From the NCBI RefSeq assembly GCF_055900595.2, contig NZ_CM148325.1: a stretch of DNA of 64,000 nt; one strand, written 5' to 3'. Under the pieces are notes generated by a model that searched no databases, was not told where the DNA came from, and saw only the letters and a list, made by a program, of their open reading frames with translations. Below, piece after piece: positions 4,058-56,846 of the stretch; position 1 is the stretch's first letter, and every line of letters starts with the position of its first letter. Position numbers and translations under genes: made by a program.

Positions 4058-4113
4058 AAACGGCGGCAGAGCAGTCACGGAGTAAAACTGATACCGCTAA
4101 ACGTCACCAGAAA
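4058..4113 (-). ncRNA. dicF: DicF small RNA (ftsZ-targeting sRNA of Qin-type prophages)
   Basis: Minus-strand sequence ttttctggtgacgtttagcggtatcagttttactccgtgactgctctgccgccg followed by a T-run; near-identical to DicF as I recall it. Confidence 0.8.
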
Positions 4114-6779: not shown

Positions 6780-6850
6780 CTGACAATAGCCATATCGAAT
6801 CGCTTCCGGCAACTCGTGAGTAAAAAGATTCGGTATCAGAAGAGGTGAGT

Positions 6851-7921
6851 ATGGCTAACGCCTGGCTCAGATTATGGCATGACATGCCAAATGACCCTAA
6901 GTGGCGAACAATTGCCAGGGTGTCAGGGCAGCCAATTGCAACAGTGATGGCAGTGTATATCCACCTCCTGGTGAGCGCGTCACGAAATGTCACGCGAGGT
7001 CACATTGATGTCACGACAGAAGATTTGGCAAGTGCGCTCGACGTGACAGAAGAGGTAATTGATTCAATTTTGCAGACGATGCAGGGGCGGGTACTTGATG
7101 GTGATTTAATCACTGGATGGGAAAAACGCCAGGTGCTGAAAGAGGACAACGGTAATATTTCGCAAACCGCAAAATCTCCGGCAGAGCGCAAGAGGGCGCA
7201 GCGAGAGAGGGAAAGAAAGCGGGAACAAAATGGCGATTGTCACGGCGAGTCACGAAATGTCACGCACATGTCACGACGAGTCACGACAGATAAAGATACA
7301 GATAAAGATACAGATCAAGAAGATCAAAACACTATGGTCCATGGCGTAAAAAACGCCGCGAACCAGGCAGGGGATGTTCAGACCGTCAATCTTGGTCAGC
7401 CAGCAGGCACGACACCGGAAGCCGATTCAGCGTATGCGCTGAAAGCCGATTCGGGCGCTGTGCAGCAGGTGATGACCGCAAGGCAGGAGCAATCACACCA
7501 ACTTCAGCAGCCTGAAGCCGATTCCGCCATTCAGCGGGAAGCCGATCGGGTAGTCCCGGAAAACACCGGGCAGCCTGTGGGACGAGTGGATTATCCTGAT
7601 GTGTTCGAACAGGTCTGGCGGGAATACCCGTTGCGTGCCGGGGCAAACCCGAAGAAATCCGCTTTCAGTGCCTGGAAGGCCAGATTACGCGAGGGGGTGC
7701 CACCAGAGGCCATGCTGGATGGCGTGAGGCGTTACGCAAGATACCTGGCGGCTACCGGGAAAACGGGAACGGAATTTGTTCAGCGAGCGACGACGTTTTT
7801 TGGACCGGACCGGAATTTTGAAAACCCCTGGTTGCTCCCGGTAAGCGGTACGAACAACCAGCGTTGTGTGAATCATATTTCTGAACCGGATACCGAAATT
7901 CCACCGGGCTTCAGGGGGTAA
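6851..7921 (+). CDS. Replication initiation protein (O-like, DUF1376/YdaU-type N-terminus) containing origin iterons
   Basis: N-terminal MANAWLRLWHDMPNDPKWRTIARVSG...; GAGG RBS; two clusters of GTCACG repeats inside the gene. Confidence 0.7.
   Translation: MANAWLRLWHDMPNDPKWRTIARVSGQPIATVMAVYIHLLVSASRNVTRGHIDVTTEDLASALDVTEEVIDSILQTMQGRVLDGDLITGWEKRQVLKEDNGNISQTAKSPAERKRAQRERERKREQNGDCHGESRNVTHMSRRVTTDKDTDKDTDQEDQNTMVHGVKNAANQAGDVQTVNLGQPAGTTPEADSAYALKADSGAVQQVMTARQEQSHQLQQPEADSAIQREADRVVPENTGQPVGRVDYPDVFEQVWREYPLRAGANPKKSAFSAWKARLREGVPPEAMLDGVRRYARYLAATGKTGTEFVQRATTFFGPDRNFENPWLLPVSGTNNQRCVNHISEPDTEIPPGFRG
6979..7019. repeat. Iteron cluster 1 (GTCACG-type repeats at about 10-bp phasing)
   Basis: gtcacgaaatgtcacgcgaggtcacattgatgtcacgacag. 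Confidence 0.7.
7239..7315. repeat. Iteron cluster 2 plus adjacent tandem repeat gataaagataca x2
   Basis: gtcacggcgagtcacgaaatgtcacgcacatgtcacgacgagtcacgacag, then ataaagatacagataaagatacagat; the 16-mer tcacgaaatgtcacgc is shared exactly with cluster 1. Confidence 0.7.
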
Positions 7922-7961: not shown

Positions 7962-8387
7962 GTGGCAAAAGTTTTTACACAAGAAGAGCGAGAAAAAATT
8001 AAGGGGCAGGTTGTTGAACTTGTACGTCTGAGTGGTCGCGAGACGTTACGGGCTCTGGAGGCTAAAACCGGTGCATCAAGGTATTACATAAGCACTCTCG
8101 CCAGAGAGCTGGTTGCCAGCGGCGATGTATACAACTCTGGTTACGGATTATTCCCGTCTGAACAGGCTCGTAAGGACTGGCAAAATGCCCGCAAAAAACT
8201 CTCAAGGGCAAAGCTGAAGAAAAAAACATCTGTGGTTGATCCGGACCTTATCTGGTCATTACCTGACGGAGAAATACGTCGCTACGACAGTCGTCTAAAC
8301 ATAATCTGTCGCGAGTGCCGGAAGAGCGAAGTTATGCAGCGCATACTGGCATTTTATCAGGGAAATGTTTGGTATTTATTGAAATGA
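7962..8387 (+). CDS. Hypothetical phage protein (possible HTH), replication-module position
   Basis: 141-aa ORF with GTG start 4 nt after AGGAGG; no recognisable catalytic motif. Confidence 0.5.
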   Translation: MAKVFTQEEREKIKGQVVELVRLSGRETLRALEAKTGASRYYISTLARELVASGDVYNSGYGLFPSEQARKDWQNARKKLSRAKLKKKTSVVDPDLIWSLPDGEIRRYDSRLNIICRECRKSEVMQRILAFYQGNVWYLLK

Positions 8388-9257: not shown

Positions 9258-9579
9258 TGGTTGACTACTTCAATGTATCCTGTATCAACAATGAAAATGT
9301 CCGTTCTTCGCTCACAGAATTAGTGCGACAGCTTCGCACCAAGAGCTGACATTGTAATATCCGACAGGCTATTGCCTGTCAGTTAACAGTTACGTGTTAT
9401 AAAAGGTCAGGCGGGATCCTGACTAGGTGTGTTTAAAGAAGTGCTGGTGGTGAGCGGGTGTTGTGTCCAATTTCCACAGAAAAAAATCTGAGAAACTATA
9501 CCCAATAGTTGTATTGAATCACTGACGAGACAGCCTCATATTTATCAGGACTGGTGTACTTCCAATTCAGGAGGTTGTC

Positions 9580-9669
9580 GTGCTGGTTCTCAAATGTGCG
9601 CTAGCTATTGCGGCTGTAATGGCAATTTATTGTCTTGCTGTTGTTCTTACGGATCGCCTTTCTGATTGA
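9580..9669 (+). CDS. Candidate small hydrophobic peptide (29 aa, GTG start)
   Basis: AGGAGG at 9569-9574, 5 nt before GTG; encodes VLVLKCALAIAAVMAIYCLAVVLTDRLSD; absent from the ORF track because of size and GTG start. Confidence 0.35.
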   Translation: MLVLKCALAIAAVMAIYCLAVVLTDRLSD

Positions 9670-9823
9670 TTTTATATTGGCGAGGTGACGTGAGTTAAGT
9701 AGAATTGCTGCGGGTGCTTGAGGCTATCTGCCTCAGGCATGAACACCAACGGCAGATAGAGAAAAGCCCCAGTTAACATTACGCGTCCTGCAAGACGCTT
9801 AACATTAATCTGAGGCCAATTTC

Positions 9824-10036
9824 ATGCTAGACACATGTAGGTTAGCCTCTTACGTGCCGGAAGGCAAGGAGAAGCAGGCTATGAAGCAGCAAAAGGCGAT
9901 GTTAATCGCCCTGATCGTCATCTGTTTAACCGTCATAGTGACGGCACTGGTAACGAGGAAAGACCTCTGCGAGGTACGAATCCGAACCGGCCAGACGGAG
10001 GTCGCTGTCTTCACAGCTTACGAACCTGAGGAGTAA
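9824..10036 (+). CDS. mok: mok-like reading frame overlapping hok
   Basis: 70-aa frame that starts upstream of and reads through hok, as in hok/sok loci. Confidence 0.5.
   Translation: MLDTCRLASYVPEGKEKQAMKQQKAMLIALIVICLTVIVTALVTRKDLCEVRIRTGQTEVAVFTAYEPEE
9881..10036 (+). CDS. hok: Hok/Gef-family type I toxin
   Basis: 51 aa MKQQKAMLIALIVICLTVIVTALVTRKDLCEVRIRTGQTEVAVFTAYEPEE, Hok family (HokD/RelF-like as I recall it). Confidence 0.85.
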   Translation: MKQQKAMLIALIVICLTVIVTALVTRKDLCEVRIRTGQTEVAVFTAYEPEE

Positions 10037-10106
10037 GAGACTAAGCGGGGGAGAAATCCCTCGCCACCTCTGATGAGTCAGGCATCCTCAATGCACCCGC
10101 GCTTAA

Positions 10107-10125
10107 CCCGCTTCGGCGGGTTTTT
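10107..10125 (+). terminator. Rho-independent terminator after hok
   Basis: cccgcttcggcgggttttt. Confidence 0.7.
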
Positions 10126-10140
10126 CTAGCATCTACCTGG

Positions 10141-10170
10141 TTGACAAAGTCGATGTTAAATGGAAATATG
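10141..10170 (+). promoter_or_regulatory. Candidate promoter of the 10203-11959 cassette (TTGACA-N17-AAATAT)
   Basis: Perfect -35 hexamer at 10141-10146, weak -10; a second TTGACA at 10172-10177. Confidence 0.3.
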
Positions 10171-10202: not shown

Positions 10203-10817
10203 ATGCAGAATTTATCTCAACAGTTGTTAGAAGCATATGACAAGGAGTGCCGCAAAGAGCTTTCGATCGCGTTAGCACAGGCTTATCTTCATTCGCATAT
10301 GAAGGCAAAAGAGTTTGGTTCTTTTTGGGCTCAAGCACAGTCATATTTGCGCTGGTTTTATGCCGATGCATTGCTTGAGAATGCGGCTAAGCGTGTGGGG
10401 CTGGATTTTGAAGTCGGTAGCAATGCTGCTAAAAATTGTAAACACATTGCGATTCACTCGAACAACTGGAAAATGACGGCACATCATTTATCGGGTAATG
10501 CGCCACTTCCTAAGCAGGCATTGTATAGAGCTGTTTACGCTAATCAAAATTATGAATTGAATTTTGGGGATGAAAATGCCGACTCCCTGGATGGGAGAGC
10601 GTCTGGTGGACATGTTTATATGTTACATGATGGCAGTAATCAGCACTTGTCCAAACTGAATTTAACTGTTCCTTCTTCGGATAATTACGGGATTCTTTAT
10701 ACTGAGTCTTTACCAATTATGACGATGGTAGAAGTTGAAGCAGAAAATGTGGATTCTGAGATTGAAGATAAAATCAAGATTCTTACCGAACAAATAATTA
10801 AATCACAGCAATCATGA
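10203..10817 (+). CDS. Hypothetical protein (204 aa), first gene of a two-gene accessory cassette
   Basis: ORF with AAGGA RBS; no recognisable domain; stop overlaps the start of the next gene (ATGA). Confidence 0.6.
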   Translation: MQNLSQQLLEAYDKECRKELSIALAQAYLHSHMKAKEFGSFWAQAQSYLRWFYADALLENAAKRVGLDFEVGSNAAKNCKHIAIHSNNWKMTAHHLSGNAPLPKQALYRAVYANQNYELNFGDENADSLDGRASGGHVYMLHDGSNQHLSKLNLTVPSSDNYGILYTESLPIMTMVEVEAENVDSEIEDKIKILTEQIIKSQQS

Positions 10818-11959
10818 GCATGAATATCGCACAAACACCATTTACTGATAAATCGTTTAATCCTCGTCGCCTTGAGGAGGCAAGAGAGGCAAAAGGGTTG
10901 ACGATGGCTGAACTTGCCAGAGTGCTCAATATTTCAAGACAAGCTATTTCGTCATTTGAGAAGGGGTTGAAGTCTCCCTCTGCTGATACACTTTCTGCAA
11001 TAGCCAAGGTGTTAGGATTTCCAGAACGATTTTTCTTAGCCTCCAGTGCTTCTCCATCTCTGGAGGGGGCGATTCATTTTAGAAGTCGTTCAACTGCGAC
11101 CAAAAAGGCTCGAGTTACAGGGAAAACACGTGGGCGTTGGGCGGCATTAATATTGGATGAATGTCTAAAATATGCTCAATTACCAGATGTGGTTCTGCCT
11201 GAATTCGATATTATTGATTTTGAGGTTCTGTCTCTATCTGATATTGAGGATATGTCCACCCAATTAAGGCGTTTTTGGGGGTTAGGTGATGGTCCAATAC
11301 TCAATTTAACTAGACTTGTTGAAAATAAAGGAATCGTGGTTTCTCATTTACCTTCTGGTGAGAAAGTTGATGCCTTTTCGTTCTGGCATAATGGGCGGCC
11401 TTTAATTATGTTAGATAGCTCGAAGACGGCTGTTCGCATGCGATTTAGTCTTGCTCATGAACTTGGCCATTTAATTATGCATAGGGCAGTGGAGGATGAC
11501 TACCTGAATGATAAAGAATTATTCGACCTGGTGGAGTTGCAGGCCGATTATTTTGCCTCCAGCTTTTTAATGCCAGCCACCACTTTCGGGCGTGAATTTT
11601 ATAGTCCAAATTTATCAGCGTTAGAACGATTAAAACTACGTTGGATTACATCTATCGGTAGTATTGCCATGAGGAGTCATAGCCTTAAGTTAATCAGCGA
11701 TAATCAGAAAAGCTATATATTTAAGCAATTAGCGCCATTCCATCGTAGGGAGCCGTTAGATGATGCAATCCCAAAAGAAGAGCCTGAGTTACTTAATAAG
11801 TTACTTTTACTTCTTGATAAGCATTCAATCATAAAGGTAACTGAGTTAACTGATATCTTTGCTCTTCCCTTAAATGAGTTATCTGCAATTACACGATTTA
11901 AAGAATCAGATATGATTCATTCTGACAATGTTATTTCATTTACCATAAAACAAAAATAA
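10814..11959 (+). CDS. HTH_XRE - ImmA/IrrE (COG2856, M78-like) zinc metallopeptidase fusion protein
   Basis: N-terminal XRE HTH (LTMAELARVLNISRQAISSFEKG); HEXXH motif HELGHLIMH at 11456-11470 followed by ELQADYFASSFLMP, typical of ImmA/IrrE. Confidence 0.8.
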   Translation: MSMNIAQTPFTDKSFNPRRLEEAREAKGLTMAELARVLNISRQAISSFEKGLKSPSADTLSAIAKVLGFPERFFLASSASPSLEGAIHFRSRSTATKKARVTGKTRGRWAALILDECLKYAQLPDVVLPEFDIIDFEVLSLSDIEDMSTQLRRFWGLGDGPILNLTRLVENKGIVVSHLPSGEKVDAFSFWHNGRPLIMLDSSKTAVRMRFSLAHELGHLIMHRAVEDDYLNDKELFDLVELQADYFASSFLMPATTFGREFYSPNLSALERLKLRWITSIGSIAMRSHSLKLISDNQKSYIFKQLAPFHRREPLDDAIPKEEPELLNKLLLLLDKHSIIKVTELTDIFALPLNELSAITRFKESDMIHSDNVISFTIKQK

Positions 11960-19053: not shown

Positions 19054-19416
19054 ATTAATATTAAATCGGATTATTTTTAGCGCTGAATGTGAAATTTAAA
19101 TAAAAAGGACTCTTCCATGAGTCAAAATCCTTGAAATCTTAAGGGTAAGATAAAAGGTCATTAGACAGAATGACACGTTTTATTAATAAATAAAGCTATT
19201 GTTTCATTCGTGTGTTTTTCTTTACAAAAGTAATCCTTGCTATGGTTGGTTAATCATGCGTTAATGGTGTTCTGGTTTGTTACAAAATTATCTGAAGCAG
19301 TCATTGTTATAATTTTATTATTTGTACCTCTTGAGATTTCCTTGTTGGTTTTTCTCTCTGATATTTTTTTTCGGACCATTCTGCCCAAGGGCTAACTTCT
19401 TCAAAAGGTAATAATG

Positions 19417-19629
19417 ATGTCTAACAAAATGACTGGTTTAGTGAAATGGTTTAACCCTGAAAAAGGTTTTGGTTTCATCACGCCGAAAGATGGTAGCAAA
19501 GATGTGTTTGTCCATTTCTCAGCTATTCAGAGCAACGATTTCAAAACGTTAACTGAGAATCAGGAAGTCGAATTTGGTATTGAGAACGGACCTAAAGGCC
19601 CCGCGGCTGTTCATGTTGTGGCACTTTGA
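19417..19629 (+). CDS. cspI: Cold shock protein (CspI-like)
   Basis: [38 protein letters not shown]... cold-shock domain. Confidence 0.9.
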
Positions 19630-19828
19630 GGTAGATAATATTACAAACCATATTCACTTTAGATGCCCGTGTTGCCATGGTTCTCAGTATAGAACATCAT
19701 CTTTTGATGTTTCTGACAGGAATCCTTTCGGGGCAAAATGTATCTTTTGTAAATCAATGATGATTACATTTGATAATATTTCACAATACTTAAATGTTAG
19801 CCGTCTATCGTTAGATTTAAGAAAGTGA
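19613..19828 (+). CDS. Possible small Cys4 zinc-ribbon protein
   Basis: [10 protein letters not shown]...CIFCKS motif; weak RBS; start overlaps the csp stop. Confidence 0.3.
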
Positions 19829-40623: not shown

Positions 40624-41330
40624 TGCACAGAAAACCCCCAGCTAGGCTGGGGGTTCCGGAAAGCTTTCAGCTTTGAGCCAGTTATTAAAACCCCTTTTGA
40701 TTTGTTAAAACACCTTGCGGTCTGGCAACTGCAAGTGTCAAACAAGAAATCAAAAGGGGGTCCCAATGGGGGACGAAAAGAGCTTAGCGCACACCCGCTG
40801 GAACTGTAAATATCACATAGTTTTTGCGCCGAAATACCGAAGACTGGCGTTTTACGGAGAGAAGCGTAGGGCGATAGGCAGTATTTTGAGAAAGCTGTGT
40901 GAGTGGAAAAGCGTACGGATTCTGGAAGCAGAGTGCTGCGCAGATCATATCCATATGCTTGTGGAAATCCCACCCAAAATGAGCGTATCCGGCTTTATGG
41001 GATATCTGAAAGGGAAAAGCAGTCTGATGCTTTACGAGCAGTTTGGGGATTTGAAATTCAAATACAGAAACAGGGAGTTCTGGTGCCGAGGGTACTATGT
41101 CGATACGGTGGGTAAGAACACGGCGAAGATACAGGACTACATAAAGCACCAGCTTGAAGAGGATAAAATGGGGGAGCAGTTATCGATTCCATATCCGGGC
41201 AGCCCGTTTACGGGCCGTAAGTAACGAAGTTGAATGCAAATGTCAGATCGTATGCGCCTGTTAGGGCGCGGCTGGTAACAGAGCCTTACAGGCGCATTTG
41301 AAAAACCTCCGGCTATGCCGGAGGATATTT
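40621..41330 (+). mobile_element. IS200-family insertion sequence (about 710 bp, boundaries approximate)
   Basis: Left-end hairpin cccccagctaggctggggg, second stem-loop over the RBS, tnpA, right-end hairpin cctccggctatgccggagg. Confidence 0.8.
40766..41224 (+). CDS. tnpA: IS200 transposase TnpA (HUH Y1 transposase)
   Basis: MGDEKSLAHTRWNCKYHIVFAPKYRR...HIHMLVEIPPKMSVS matches IS200 TnpA. Confidence 0.9.
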   Translation: MGDEKSLAHTRWNCKYHIVFAPKYRRLAFYGEKRRAIGSILRKLCEWKSVRILEAECCADHIHMLVEIPPKMSVSGFMGYLKGKSSLMLYEQFGDLKFKYRNREFWCRGYYVDTVGKNTAKIQDYIKHQLEEDKMGEQLSIPYPGSPFTGRK

Positions 41331-48576: not shown

Positions 48577-50037
48577 ATGGGAAATAATTTGTTATCAGCA
48601 AAAGCGACGCTCCCTGTTTATGATCGTAATAACCTGGCCCCAAGAATTGTTCATTTAGGCTTTGGTGCATTTCACCGTGCGCATCAGGGCGTGTATGCCG
48701 ATATTCTTGCTACGGAACATTTCAGTGACTGGGGATATTATGAGGTCAATTTAATCGGCGGCGAACAGCAAATTGCCGATTTACAACAGCAAGATAATCT
48801 TTATACCGTTGCGGAAATGTCGGCCGATGCGTGGACGGCTCGCGTCGTTGGCGTCGTTAAAAAAGCCTTGCACATACAAATAGATGGCTTAGAAACCGTG
48901 CTGGCTGCGATGTGTGAACCGCAAATCGCGATTGTCTCTCTGACAATCACCGAAAAAGGGTATTTCCACTCTCCGGCGACCGGACAGTTAATGCTCGATC
49001 ACCCGATGGTCGTTGCCGACGTGCAAAATCCCCACCAGCCGAAAACTGCAACAGGGGTGATTGTTGAGGCGCTGGCTCGCCGTAAAGCGGCAGGACTTCC
49101 CGCATTTACCGTCATGTCATGTGACAACATGCCAGAAAACGGTCATGTTATGCGTGACGTTGTCACTTCCTACGCGCAAGCTGTTGATGTAAAACTGGCA
49201 CAATGGATCGAAGAAAACGTGACTTTCCCATCAACAATGGTGGACCGTATTGTGCCCGCAGTGACGGAGGATACGCTGGCGAAAATCGAACAACTTACCG
49301 GTGTGCGCGATCCTGCTGGCGTTGCCTGTGAACCTTTCCGCCAGTGGGTAATAGAAGATAACTTTGTTGCCGGACGTCCGGAATGGGAAAAAGCGGGAGC
49401 CGAACTGGTTAGTGATGTGCTGCCTTATGAAGAGATGAAGTTGCGCATGCTCAACGGCAGTCATTCATTCCTGGCGTATCTGGGGTATCTTGCCGGATAT
49501 CAGCACATTAATGACTGCATGGAAGATGAACATTATCATCATGCAGCGTATGCCTTGATGTTGCAGGAACAAGCGCCCACGCTGAAAGTGCAGGGCGTTG
49601 ATTTGCAAGATTACGCTAACCGATTAATTGAACGCTATAGCAACCCGGCGCTACGTCATCGAACCTGGCAGATTGCGATGGATGGCAGCCAGAAATTGCC
49701 ACAGCGGATGTTGGATTCTGTTCGCTGGCATCTGGCGCATGACAGCAAGTTCGATCTGCTGGCGCTGGGCGTCGCGGGTTGGATGCGTTATGTCGGTGGT
49801 GTTGATGAACAGGGAAATCAGATAGAAATCAGTGACCCACTGTTACCTGTTATTCAGAAGGCAGTACAAAGTAGTGCTGAAGGGAAAGCGCGCGTCCAGT
49901 CATTGCTGGCGATTAAGGCGATCTTTGGTGATGATTTACCGGGCAATAGCTTGTTTACTGCAAAAGTGACGGAAGCGTACTTGTCTTTATTAGCGCATGG
50001 CGCAAAAGCGACCGTGGCGAAATATTCCGTGAAGTAA
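48577..50037 (+). CDS. ydfI: Mannitol/mannonate dehydrogenase family oxidoreductase
   Basis: 486 aa with N-terminal Rossmann motif [11 protein letters not shown]. Confidence 0.85.
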
Positions 50038-56532: not shown

Positions 56533-56577
56533 GCTCCGTTTAACATTCATTGAGAAAACTGATGCTACTGTGTCAAC

Positions 56578-56677
56578 GATCCGTTATCAGTGCAGGAAAA
56601 TGCCTGTTAGCGTAAAAGCAAAACACAAATCTATCCATGCAAGCATTCACCGCCGGTTTACTGGCGGTTTTTTTTCG
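56578..56677 (+). ncRNA. mgrR: Candidate MgrR small RNA (boundaries approximate)
   Basis: Intergenic position between dgcZ and mgtS; ends at intrinsic terminator ccgccggtttactggcggtttttttt. Confidence 0.45.
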
Positions 56678-56750
56678 CCGTCATAAAAATCAGGCCCCTT
56701 GTACACAGTTGTAACAAGGGGCCGGTTAGGTGAGGGATTATCTCCGTTCA

Positions 56751-56846
56751 TTAGTCATCCCATTTGTGGCTGAAATACGCGGCCAGAAAACCAGAAAATA
56801 AAATTATTCCCAGTACGGCCATAAAAACATTCATATTACCCAGCAT
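56751..56846 (-). CDS. mgtS: Small membrane protein MgtS (YneM), 31 aa
   Basis: Minus-strand MLGNMNVFMAVLGIILFSGFLAAYFSHKWDD; not in the ORF track because of size. Confidence 0.8.
   Translation of the reverse strand: MLGNMNVFMAVLGIILFSGFLAAYFSHKWDD

Follow-up and report, generated by a model that had tools for sequence, protein, structure and literature searches.

A Probable Complete hok/mok/sok Type I Toxin–Antitoxin Cassette of the hokD/hokW Type in a Qin-Like Lambdoid Prophage of Escherichia coli

The Locus and Its Prophage Setting

The window analysed here is a stretch of 64,000 nucleotides of contig NZ_CM148325.1 (assembly GCF_055900595.2), and all positions given below are those of this stretch. 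Between positions 9677 and 10127 lie a hok toxin gene, a longer mok reading frame, the promoter, folding elements and terminator of a hok mRNA and, on the opposite strand, the sequence of a Sok antisense RNA, which together very probably make up a complete hok/mok/sok type I toxin–antitoxin cassette in a Qin-like lambdoid prophage of Escherichia coli. The interval 9700-10125, proposed for the locus by a first-pass annotation made from the sequence, is accurate and runs from the −10 box of hok to the terminator. The RefSeq annotation of the region consists of the hokD coding sequence only, leaving the mok reading frame, Sok and the mRNA elements unrecorded.

Over positions 1-20167 the window is 99.94% identical to E. 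coli strain Ch1, in which the counterpart region is a lambdoid prophage integrated beside rspA-rspB, a site which we take to be the position of Qin on the K-12 map. The cassette occupies an accessory-gene position, with replication genes on one side and the Q antiterminator on the other. The upstream side comprises a replication initiator (6845-7921) and a Ren-like gene (7962-8387), followed by two small ORFs which separate the latter from the hok locus. On the downstream side, a two-gene pair (10203-11959, plus strand) is located directly after the hok terminator and precedes a DUF968/ydfU-like gene and then the Q antiterminator. The first member of the pair encodes a 204-aa protein matching the PADLOC model RmrT (E = 7.5e-10), and the second a 381-aa protein combining an HTH domain with an ImmA/IrrE-type peptidase, which matches PADLOC RmrA (E = 5.5e-102) and an NCBIfam model for the spr1629-family antitoxin; the pair would correspond to a RosmerTA-like anti-phage defence system.

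The first-pass annotation had described the locus as solitary, devoid of flanking relB and relE genes, and this description stands. A tblastn comparison of the K-12 RelB and RelE proteins with the whole 64 kb window yields no significant match, the best one (E = 0.015 over 35 aa) being located at 49938, and matches to the RelB/RelE families are absent among the ORFs upstream of hok, so that the relBEF operon arrangement of the K-12 Qin prophage does not occur here.

The hok and mok Reading Frames

The hok coding sequence (9881..10036, plus strand) encodes a peptide of 51 aa and is preceded by a Shine–Dalgarno (SD) sequence AGGAG at 9867-9871. The peptide, previously described as HokD/RelF-like, shares 100% identity with K-12 HokD, and a protein identical to it carries the HokD annotation in RefSeq. 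It matches the Pfam family HOK_GEF (PF01848, E = 3.5e-23) over the full length of the model, as well as PHROG 251, labelled "MokW-like host killing" (E = 2.8e-33), and displays the features of a Hok/Gef-type toxin, i.e., a size of about 50 aa and an N-terminal transmembrane helix. Two general Hok-family NCBIfam models match below their curated cut-offs (48.5 vs 73 bits), and no PADLOC model matches Hok itself.

The mok reading frame (9824..10036, plus strand, 70 aa), taken from the ORF list, is preceded by an SD sequence GAGG at 9812-9815. The overlapping mok frame reported by the first-pass annotation is thus present, but it is not a shifted frame: mok is read in the same frame as hok, and Mok consists of Hok extended by 19 aa at the N-terminus, a layout also found in mokW of phage 933W. 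Its start is located upstream of hok and inside the Sok target, and its sequence overlaps that of hok. The exact 70-aa Mok sequence occurs on at least 1000 contigs.

Codon 47 of Hok is TAC followed by G (10019-10022, plus strand), within the sequence UUACGAA, which is presumably a context for TadA A-to-I editing, converting Tyr to Cys. A survey preprint (bioRxiv 10.1101/2025.08.07.668861) states that hokD mRNA undergoes such Tyr to Cys editing by TadA.

The hok mRNA and Its Predicted Conformations

A sigma-70-like promoter of hok and mok occurs at 9677..9705 on the plus strand, with a −35 box TTGGCG (9677-9682) and a −10 box TAGAAT (9700-9705) separated by a 17-nt spacer, and scores 9/12 consensus matches in a promoter scan. 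Among 87 unique complete loci collected from IMG/VR and reference records, the −10 box is kept, whereas the sequence upstream of about 9690 varies. Transcription is predicted to start at about 9712, which is also where position 1 of the Rfam hok/sok leader model RF01794 falls. The covariance-model search suggested by the first-pass annotation recovers this leader at 9712-9886 (plus strand) with 115.8 bits (gathering score 59, E = 1e-25), the model being fully covered (1-157).

The full-length mRNA, of about 416 nt (9712..10127, plus strand), parallels in its architecture the hok mRNA of the plasmid R1 type, its start and 3′ processing being predicted, and folds with a minimum free energy (MFE) of −167.6 kcal/mol (z = −7.1 vs shuffled sequences). 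It ends at an intrinsic terminator (10105..10127), made of a hairpin at 10105-10122 (AACCCGC UUCG GCGGGUU, 7 bp in the MFE fold) followed by UUUCU; the terminator that the locus had been credited with is therefore recovered, and it is shared with K-12 hokD. Both this terminator and the Sok promoter were missed by a promoter/terminator consensus scan and were placed according to sequence, folds and homology.

At its 5′ end, the mRNA carries the tac element (GGGUGCUUGAGG, 9712..9723), which is nearly invariant in the 87 loci, with minor variation at 9712 only. In the first 29 nt of the nascent transcript folded alone, tac is buried in an 11-bp hairpin (−19.2 kcal/mol), and the metastable 5′ hairpin predicted to sequester it covers 9714..9740. 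Farther downstream occur ucb (AAGCCCC, 9764..9770), the anti-SD of mok, and the Sok-target hairpin (9812..9849), in which the mok SD is paired with dcb (GCCUC, 9845-9849) and which exposes an apical loop CUAGACA containing the YUNR-type motif CUAG. Beyond the coding sequence, a 3′ UTR hairpin (10045-10064) precedes the fbi element (CCUCAA-U-GCACCC; CCUCAAUGCACCC) at 10086..10098. The first-pass annotation had considered that disrupted structural elements would point to a decayed locus; tac, fbi, ucb and dcb are all intact in the predicted folds.

Depending on the length of the transcript, two different conformations are predicted. In the full-length fold (9712-10127), tac and fbi form a stem of 12 bp interrupted by a single bulged U, with pair probabilities of 0.90-1.00, and 9766-9772 pairs with 9810-9816, so that ucb covers the mok SD. 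In the fold of a 3′-shortened transcript (9712-10083), deprived of fbi and the terminator, GGG.GCUU (9712-9719) pairs with AAGCCCC (9764-9770) to give a tac/ucb stem, and GAGGC (9812-9816) pairs with GCCUC (9845-9849) to give the SDmok/dcb stem of the target hairpin; this hairpin, absent from the full-length fold, is also part of the Rfam consensus structure. According to the model established for R1, a metastable 5′ hairpin works during transcription, the full-length mRNA is closed by the tac/fbi stem while ucb masks the mok SD, and the 3′-trimmed mRNA adopts the tac/ucb and SDmok/dcb pairings that make Sok binding and translation possible (PMC9841398). The predicted folds appear to reproduce this published switch, which is suggestive but not conclusive. 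Since an R1-type control (the intact locus L130) failed to refold in a simple MFE test once fbi was removed, the switch predicted in silico for the window counts as supportive evidence only.

The 3′ UTR of hok (10045-10126, plus strand) weakly resembles isrK (RF01394), a family of Salmonella prophage sRNAs, with 26.1 bits for a gathering score of 50 (E = 0.003).

The Sok Antisense RNA

A Sok antisense RNA of about 71 nt is predicted on the minus strand (9762..9832, transcribed from 9832 to 9762), the ends being placed from the sequence. It consists of a 15-nt single-stranded 5′ tail, a long hairpin and a UUUU run, and the sokW annotation of 933W maps by alignment onto the same coordinates. Its promoter (9839..9867, minus strand), read from the sequence, comprises a −35 box TTGCCT (9867..9862) and a −10 box TAACCT (9844..9839) with a 17-nt spacer, in the minus-strand sequence CTCC-TTGCCT-TCCGGCACGTAAGAGGC-TAACCT-ACATGT-G, which leads to a start at about 9832. 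The −35 box is invariant and the −10 box nearly so (9841 being G or A) in the 87 loci; the −10 box contains 3/6 consensus bases and was left unscored by the consensus scan. Folding energies of the predicted RNA lie between −28.7 and −31.4 kcal/mol, and a version that is slightly longer gives z = −5.6; the RNA shows a terminator-like 3′ end, and its hairpin is extended by about 16 nt compared to the Rfam consensus.

At the level of sequence, the locus thus appears to encode its antisense RNA in cis under a separate promoter, the RNA combining a single-stranded 5′ tail with a terminator hairpin. The first-pass annotation had expected such a complementary RNA and a minus-strand promoter, and had regarded their absence as an argument against the locus; both are found, except that Sok is located not upstream of the locus but inside it, overlapping the mok start. 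In the hokW-sokW system of phages 933W and Sp5, mutation of the Sok promoter abolishes the antitoxin activity (PMC8621323).

Relationships with Other hok/sok Systems

Among the closest known systems is hokW-sokW, including mokW, from the Stx2 phages 933W and Sp5/VT2-Sakai, which shares 94.4% nucleotide identity with the window transcript over 390 nt; the copies of 933W and Sp5 are identical to each other in the compared region. The in-frame mok layout, the hexamers of the Sok promoter, the extended Sok hairpin and the lambdoid prophage context are common to them and to the window. The differences reside in the C-terminus of the toxin (TAYEPEE in the window, VDYESEK in HokW), in five substitutions affecting the Sok 5′ tail and the target loop in 933W, and in the flanking genes. 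In addition, nothing resembling window 10100-10127 follows fbi in 933W (about 2910-2960) and Sp5: the sequence there is unrelated, and the terminator hairpin common to the window and K-12 hokD is missing, so that hokW mRNA must acquire its 3′ end in another way. As reported by Takada et al., HokW is toxic and is neutralised by sokW expressed from its own promoter (PMC8621323), a neutralisation which partly requires RNase III and Hfq (PMC8621323), and the absence or presence of hokW-sokW halves or doubles, respectively, the release of Sp5 after mitomycin C treatment (PMC8621323). The 3′ exonucleolytic processing of the mRNA, cleavage of the duplex by RNase III and killing upon Sok depletion, which are shown for this 94%-identical system, may likewise take place in the window cassette.

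The hok/mok/sok (parB) locus of plasmid R1 contains the same set of elements in the same order; its predicted tac-fbi closure and 5′ stems match those of the window, and its Sok promoter has the same position relative to the hok SD. The R1-type comparison refers to locus L130; the plasmid copies L127, L128, L129 and L131 were rejected for this purpose, having IS elements inside or a replaced 3′ end. The tac-fbi stem reads GGCGCUU/AAGCGCC in the L130 fold and GGGUGC../..GCACCC in the window, the position and role of fbi being equal, and the 5′ stem shows a compensated difference, CUUUCUGCC/GGCAGAAAG in R1 versus CUAUCUGCC/GGCAGAUAG in the window. Moreover, mok and hok are read in different frames in R1, as seen from the L130 sequence, whereas they share one frame in the window; the carrier is a plasmid in one case and a prophage in the other, and the proteins of the R1 and prophage types share about 44% identity, a figure stated for HokW (PMC8621323).

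The third relative, hokD (relF) from the Qin prophage of K-12, encodes an identical 51-aa toxin but occurs as the third gene of relB-relE-hokD. Its homology with the window is restricted to 9867-10125 (97.3% identity), a segment containing the SD, the coding sequence, the 3′ UTR, fbi and the terminator, to which a shared downstream ydfU region has to be added. Immediately upstream of hokD, K-12 carries relB-relE in place of 9712-9866, i.e., of tac, ucb, the mok start and sok with its promoter. The homology breaks off within the Sok −35 box, so that K-12 has kept the hok SD, coding sequence, fbi and terminator, and misses tac, ucb, the mok start and sok. Just past the hok terminator, the homology of the window to K-12 and to other phages stops, and K-12 possesses rem where the window possesses the RosmerTA-like pair. 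On the alignment, relB-relE-hokD of K-12 is best read as a derived truncation and the solitary complete form as the commoner, ancestral state, which agrees with the statement, attributed to Pedersen and Gerdes (1999) where they are cited in PMC7232551, that the K-12 hok loci were inactivated by IS elements, point mutations or rearrangement.

Distribution of the Cassette

Of 5426 complete E. coli genomes, 3848 contain at least one complete copy of the cassette, counted as such whenever 80% or more of window 9650-10150 was covered; the number of matching places per genome has a median of 2 and reaches 10. The relB-relE-hokD block occurs in 1163 of the same 5426 genomes. The isolated phages Tritos, HannyBb and mEp460 also harbour the cassette, in the same accessory-gene position. 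Given these numbers and these phages, the absence of relBE, which the first-pass annotation had implicitly treated as an oddity, is not unusual. The cassette type is already known, and the window contains an ordinary complete copy of a well-known RNA-controlled system. Its significance mainly concerns annotation, K-12 hokD being a truncated remnant, whereas the intact hokD-type cassette belongs to the standard cargo modules of lambdoid prophages.

A Variable Segment in the Sok-Recognition Region

Across the 87 loci, the hok coding sequence is 93-100%, and mostly 99-100%, identical to that of the window, and most of the leader is similarly kept. The exception consists of a 22-nt segment (9817-9838) spanning the Sok 5′ tail, the apex of the target hairpin and mok codons 2-5, where the mean pairwise difference amounts to 32.7%, compared to 4.9% for the rest of the transcript, and which is the most variable 22-nt stretch of all. 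At least eight discrete alleles are distributed among cassettes that are otherwise 95-99% identical, and the target hairpin is kept in nearly all of them, as determined from individual folds of each allele, since the register of the stem shifts between alleles. In the ten IMG genomes containing at least two loci, a small sample which may include assembly duplicates, the alleles differ in seven and are shared in three.

It is conceivable, although rather doubtful, that these alleles reflect a diversifying selection for private Sok-hok recognition. In that case, the addiction or lysis-timing switch of each co-resident prophage would remain independent of the others, without cross-protection, and the segment would be of modest interest for understanding how multiple prophages avoid antitoxin cross-talk.

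Proposed Mechanism, Function and Alternative Interpretations

The cassette can with considerable confidence be regarded as a complete, self-contained system of the hokD/hokW type, which by homology to hok/sok of plasmid R1 and hokW-sokW of Sp5 would operate in the same manner as these. A constitutive promoter would deliver the hok mRNA, whose 5′ hairpin would conceal tac as long as synthesis proceeds. In the finished molecule, the pairing of tac with fbi near the 3′ end, together with the masking of the mok ribosome-binding site by ucb, would result in a stable mRNA that is neither translatable nor visible to Sok. A slow trimming of the 3′ end would remove fbi, allowing tac to capture ucb and the mok SD/dcb hairpin to display the recognition loop. 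As long as the unstable Sok RNA is present, it would bind this loop through its 5′ tail and the resulting duplex would be destroyed; once Sok is depleted, as could happen when the prophage is lost or induced or when transcription is shut off, mok and subsequently hok would be translated, and the Hok peptide would depolarise the inner membrane. The likely functions are prophage addiction and an aid to lysis and phage release when Sok drops after induction, the latter as shown for Sp5. A further role in abortive infection upon shut-off of host transcription is a possibility; R1 hok/sok is known to act against T4, as cited in PMC10305079.

The weak −10 box of Sok leaves some room for an intact-looking locus that is functionally silent, killing and stabilising nothing, like the chromosomal hokA, hokB and hokC tested in the 1990s, which gave no post-segregational killing (Pedersen and Gerdes 1999, in the summary contained in bioRxiv 10.1101/2025.08.07.668861). 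Such a silent state is nevertheless unlikely: all elements are kept, tac, the hok SD and the Sok −35 box are essentially invariant and the coding sequences mostly 99-100% identical in the 87 loci, hokW-sokW of Sp5, to which the locus is nearly identical, is active and influences the release of the phage, and the expressed HokD peptide is described as toxic in the same preprint (bioRxiv 10.1101/2025.08.07.668861). Activity of the cassette in vivo is thus considered probable, with a confidence that stays somewhat below that attached to its structure.

It could also be imagined, inasmuch as the K-12 arrangement with its 1163 of 5426 genomes is not rare, that the solitary form is the derived one, produced in this strain by the loss of relBE from an ancestral relB-relE-hokD operon. 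The place of relBE is, however, occupied here (9712-9866) by the hok leader found throughout the family, which contains tac, ucb, the mok start and sok, is recognised by Rfam and is homologous to that of R1, and it is exactly this part that K-12 lacks, with a break inside the Sok −35 box; as a deletion cannot create the hok leader, a loss of relBE is most improbable. The idea that a chance ORF happens to lie among chance hairpins, for which nothing speaks beyond the small size of the ORF, deserves hardly any credit in view of the Rfam (E = 1e-25) and Pfam (E = 3.5e-23) matches, the fold z-score of −7.1 and the thousands of conserved copies. [quoted passage not shown]

Other Features of the Window

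Immediately upstream of the cassette, a hydrophobic ORF of 29 aa (MLVLKCALAIAAVMAIYCLAVVLTDRLSD, 9580-9669, plus strand) follows an invariant AGGAGG and terminates shortly before the −35 box of hok. The conserved sequence upstream of it extends from about 9420, and the region 9400-9700 which contains the ORF recurs in 1670 E. coli genomes with a conservation of about 91-93%, nearly always lacking any annotation. Approximately half of the substitutions in the ORF are synonymous (11 aligned loci), and a longer version of it is called "membrane protein" in a few GenBank records.

Elsewhere in the window, Rfam models identify, all above their gathering scores, DicF (4061-4112, minus strand, 64.8 bits), a cspA-type thermoregulator leader upstream of a cold-shock-protein ORF (19259-19675, plus strand, 112.8 bits), STnc490 (40633-40756, plus strand, 146.4 bits) and STnc560 (56544-56757, plus strand, 280.2 bits).
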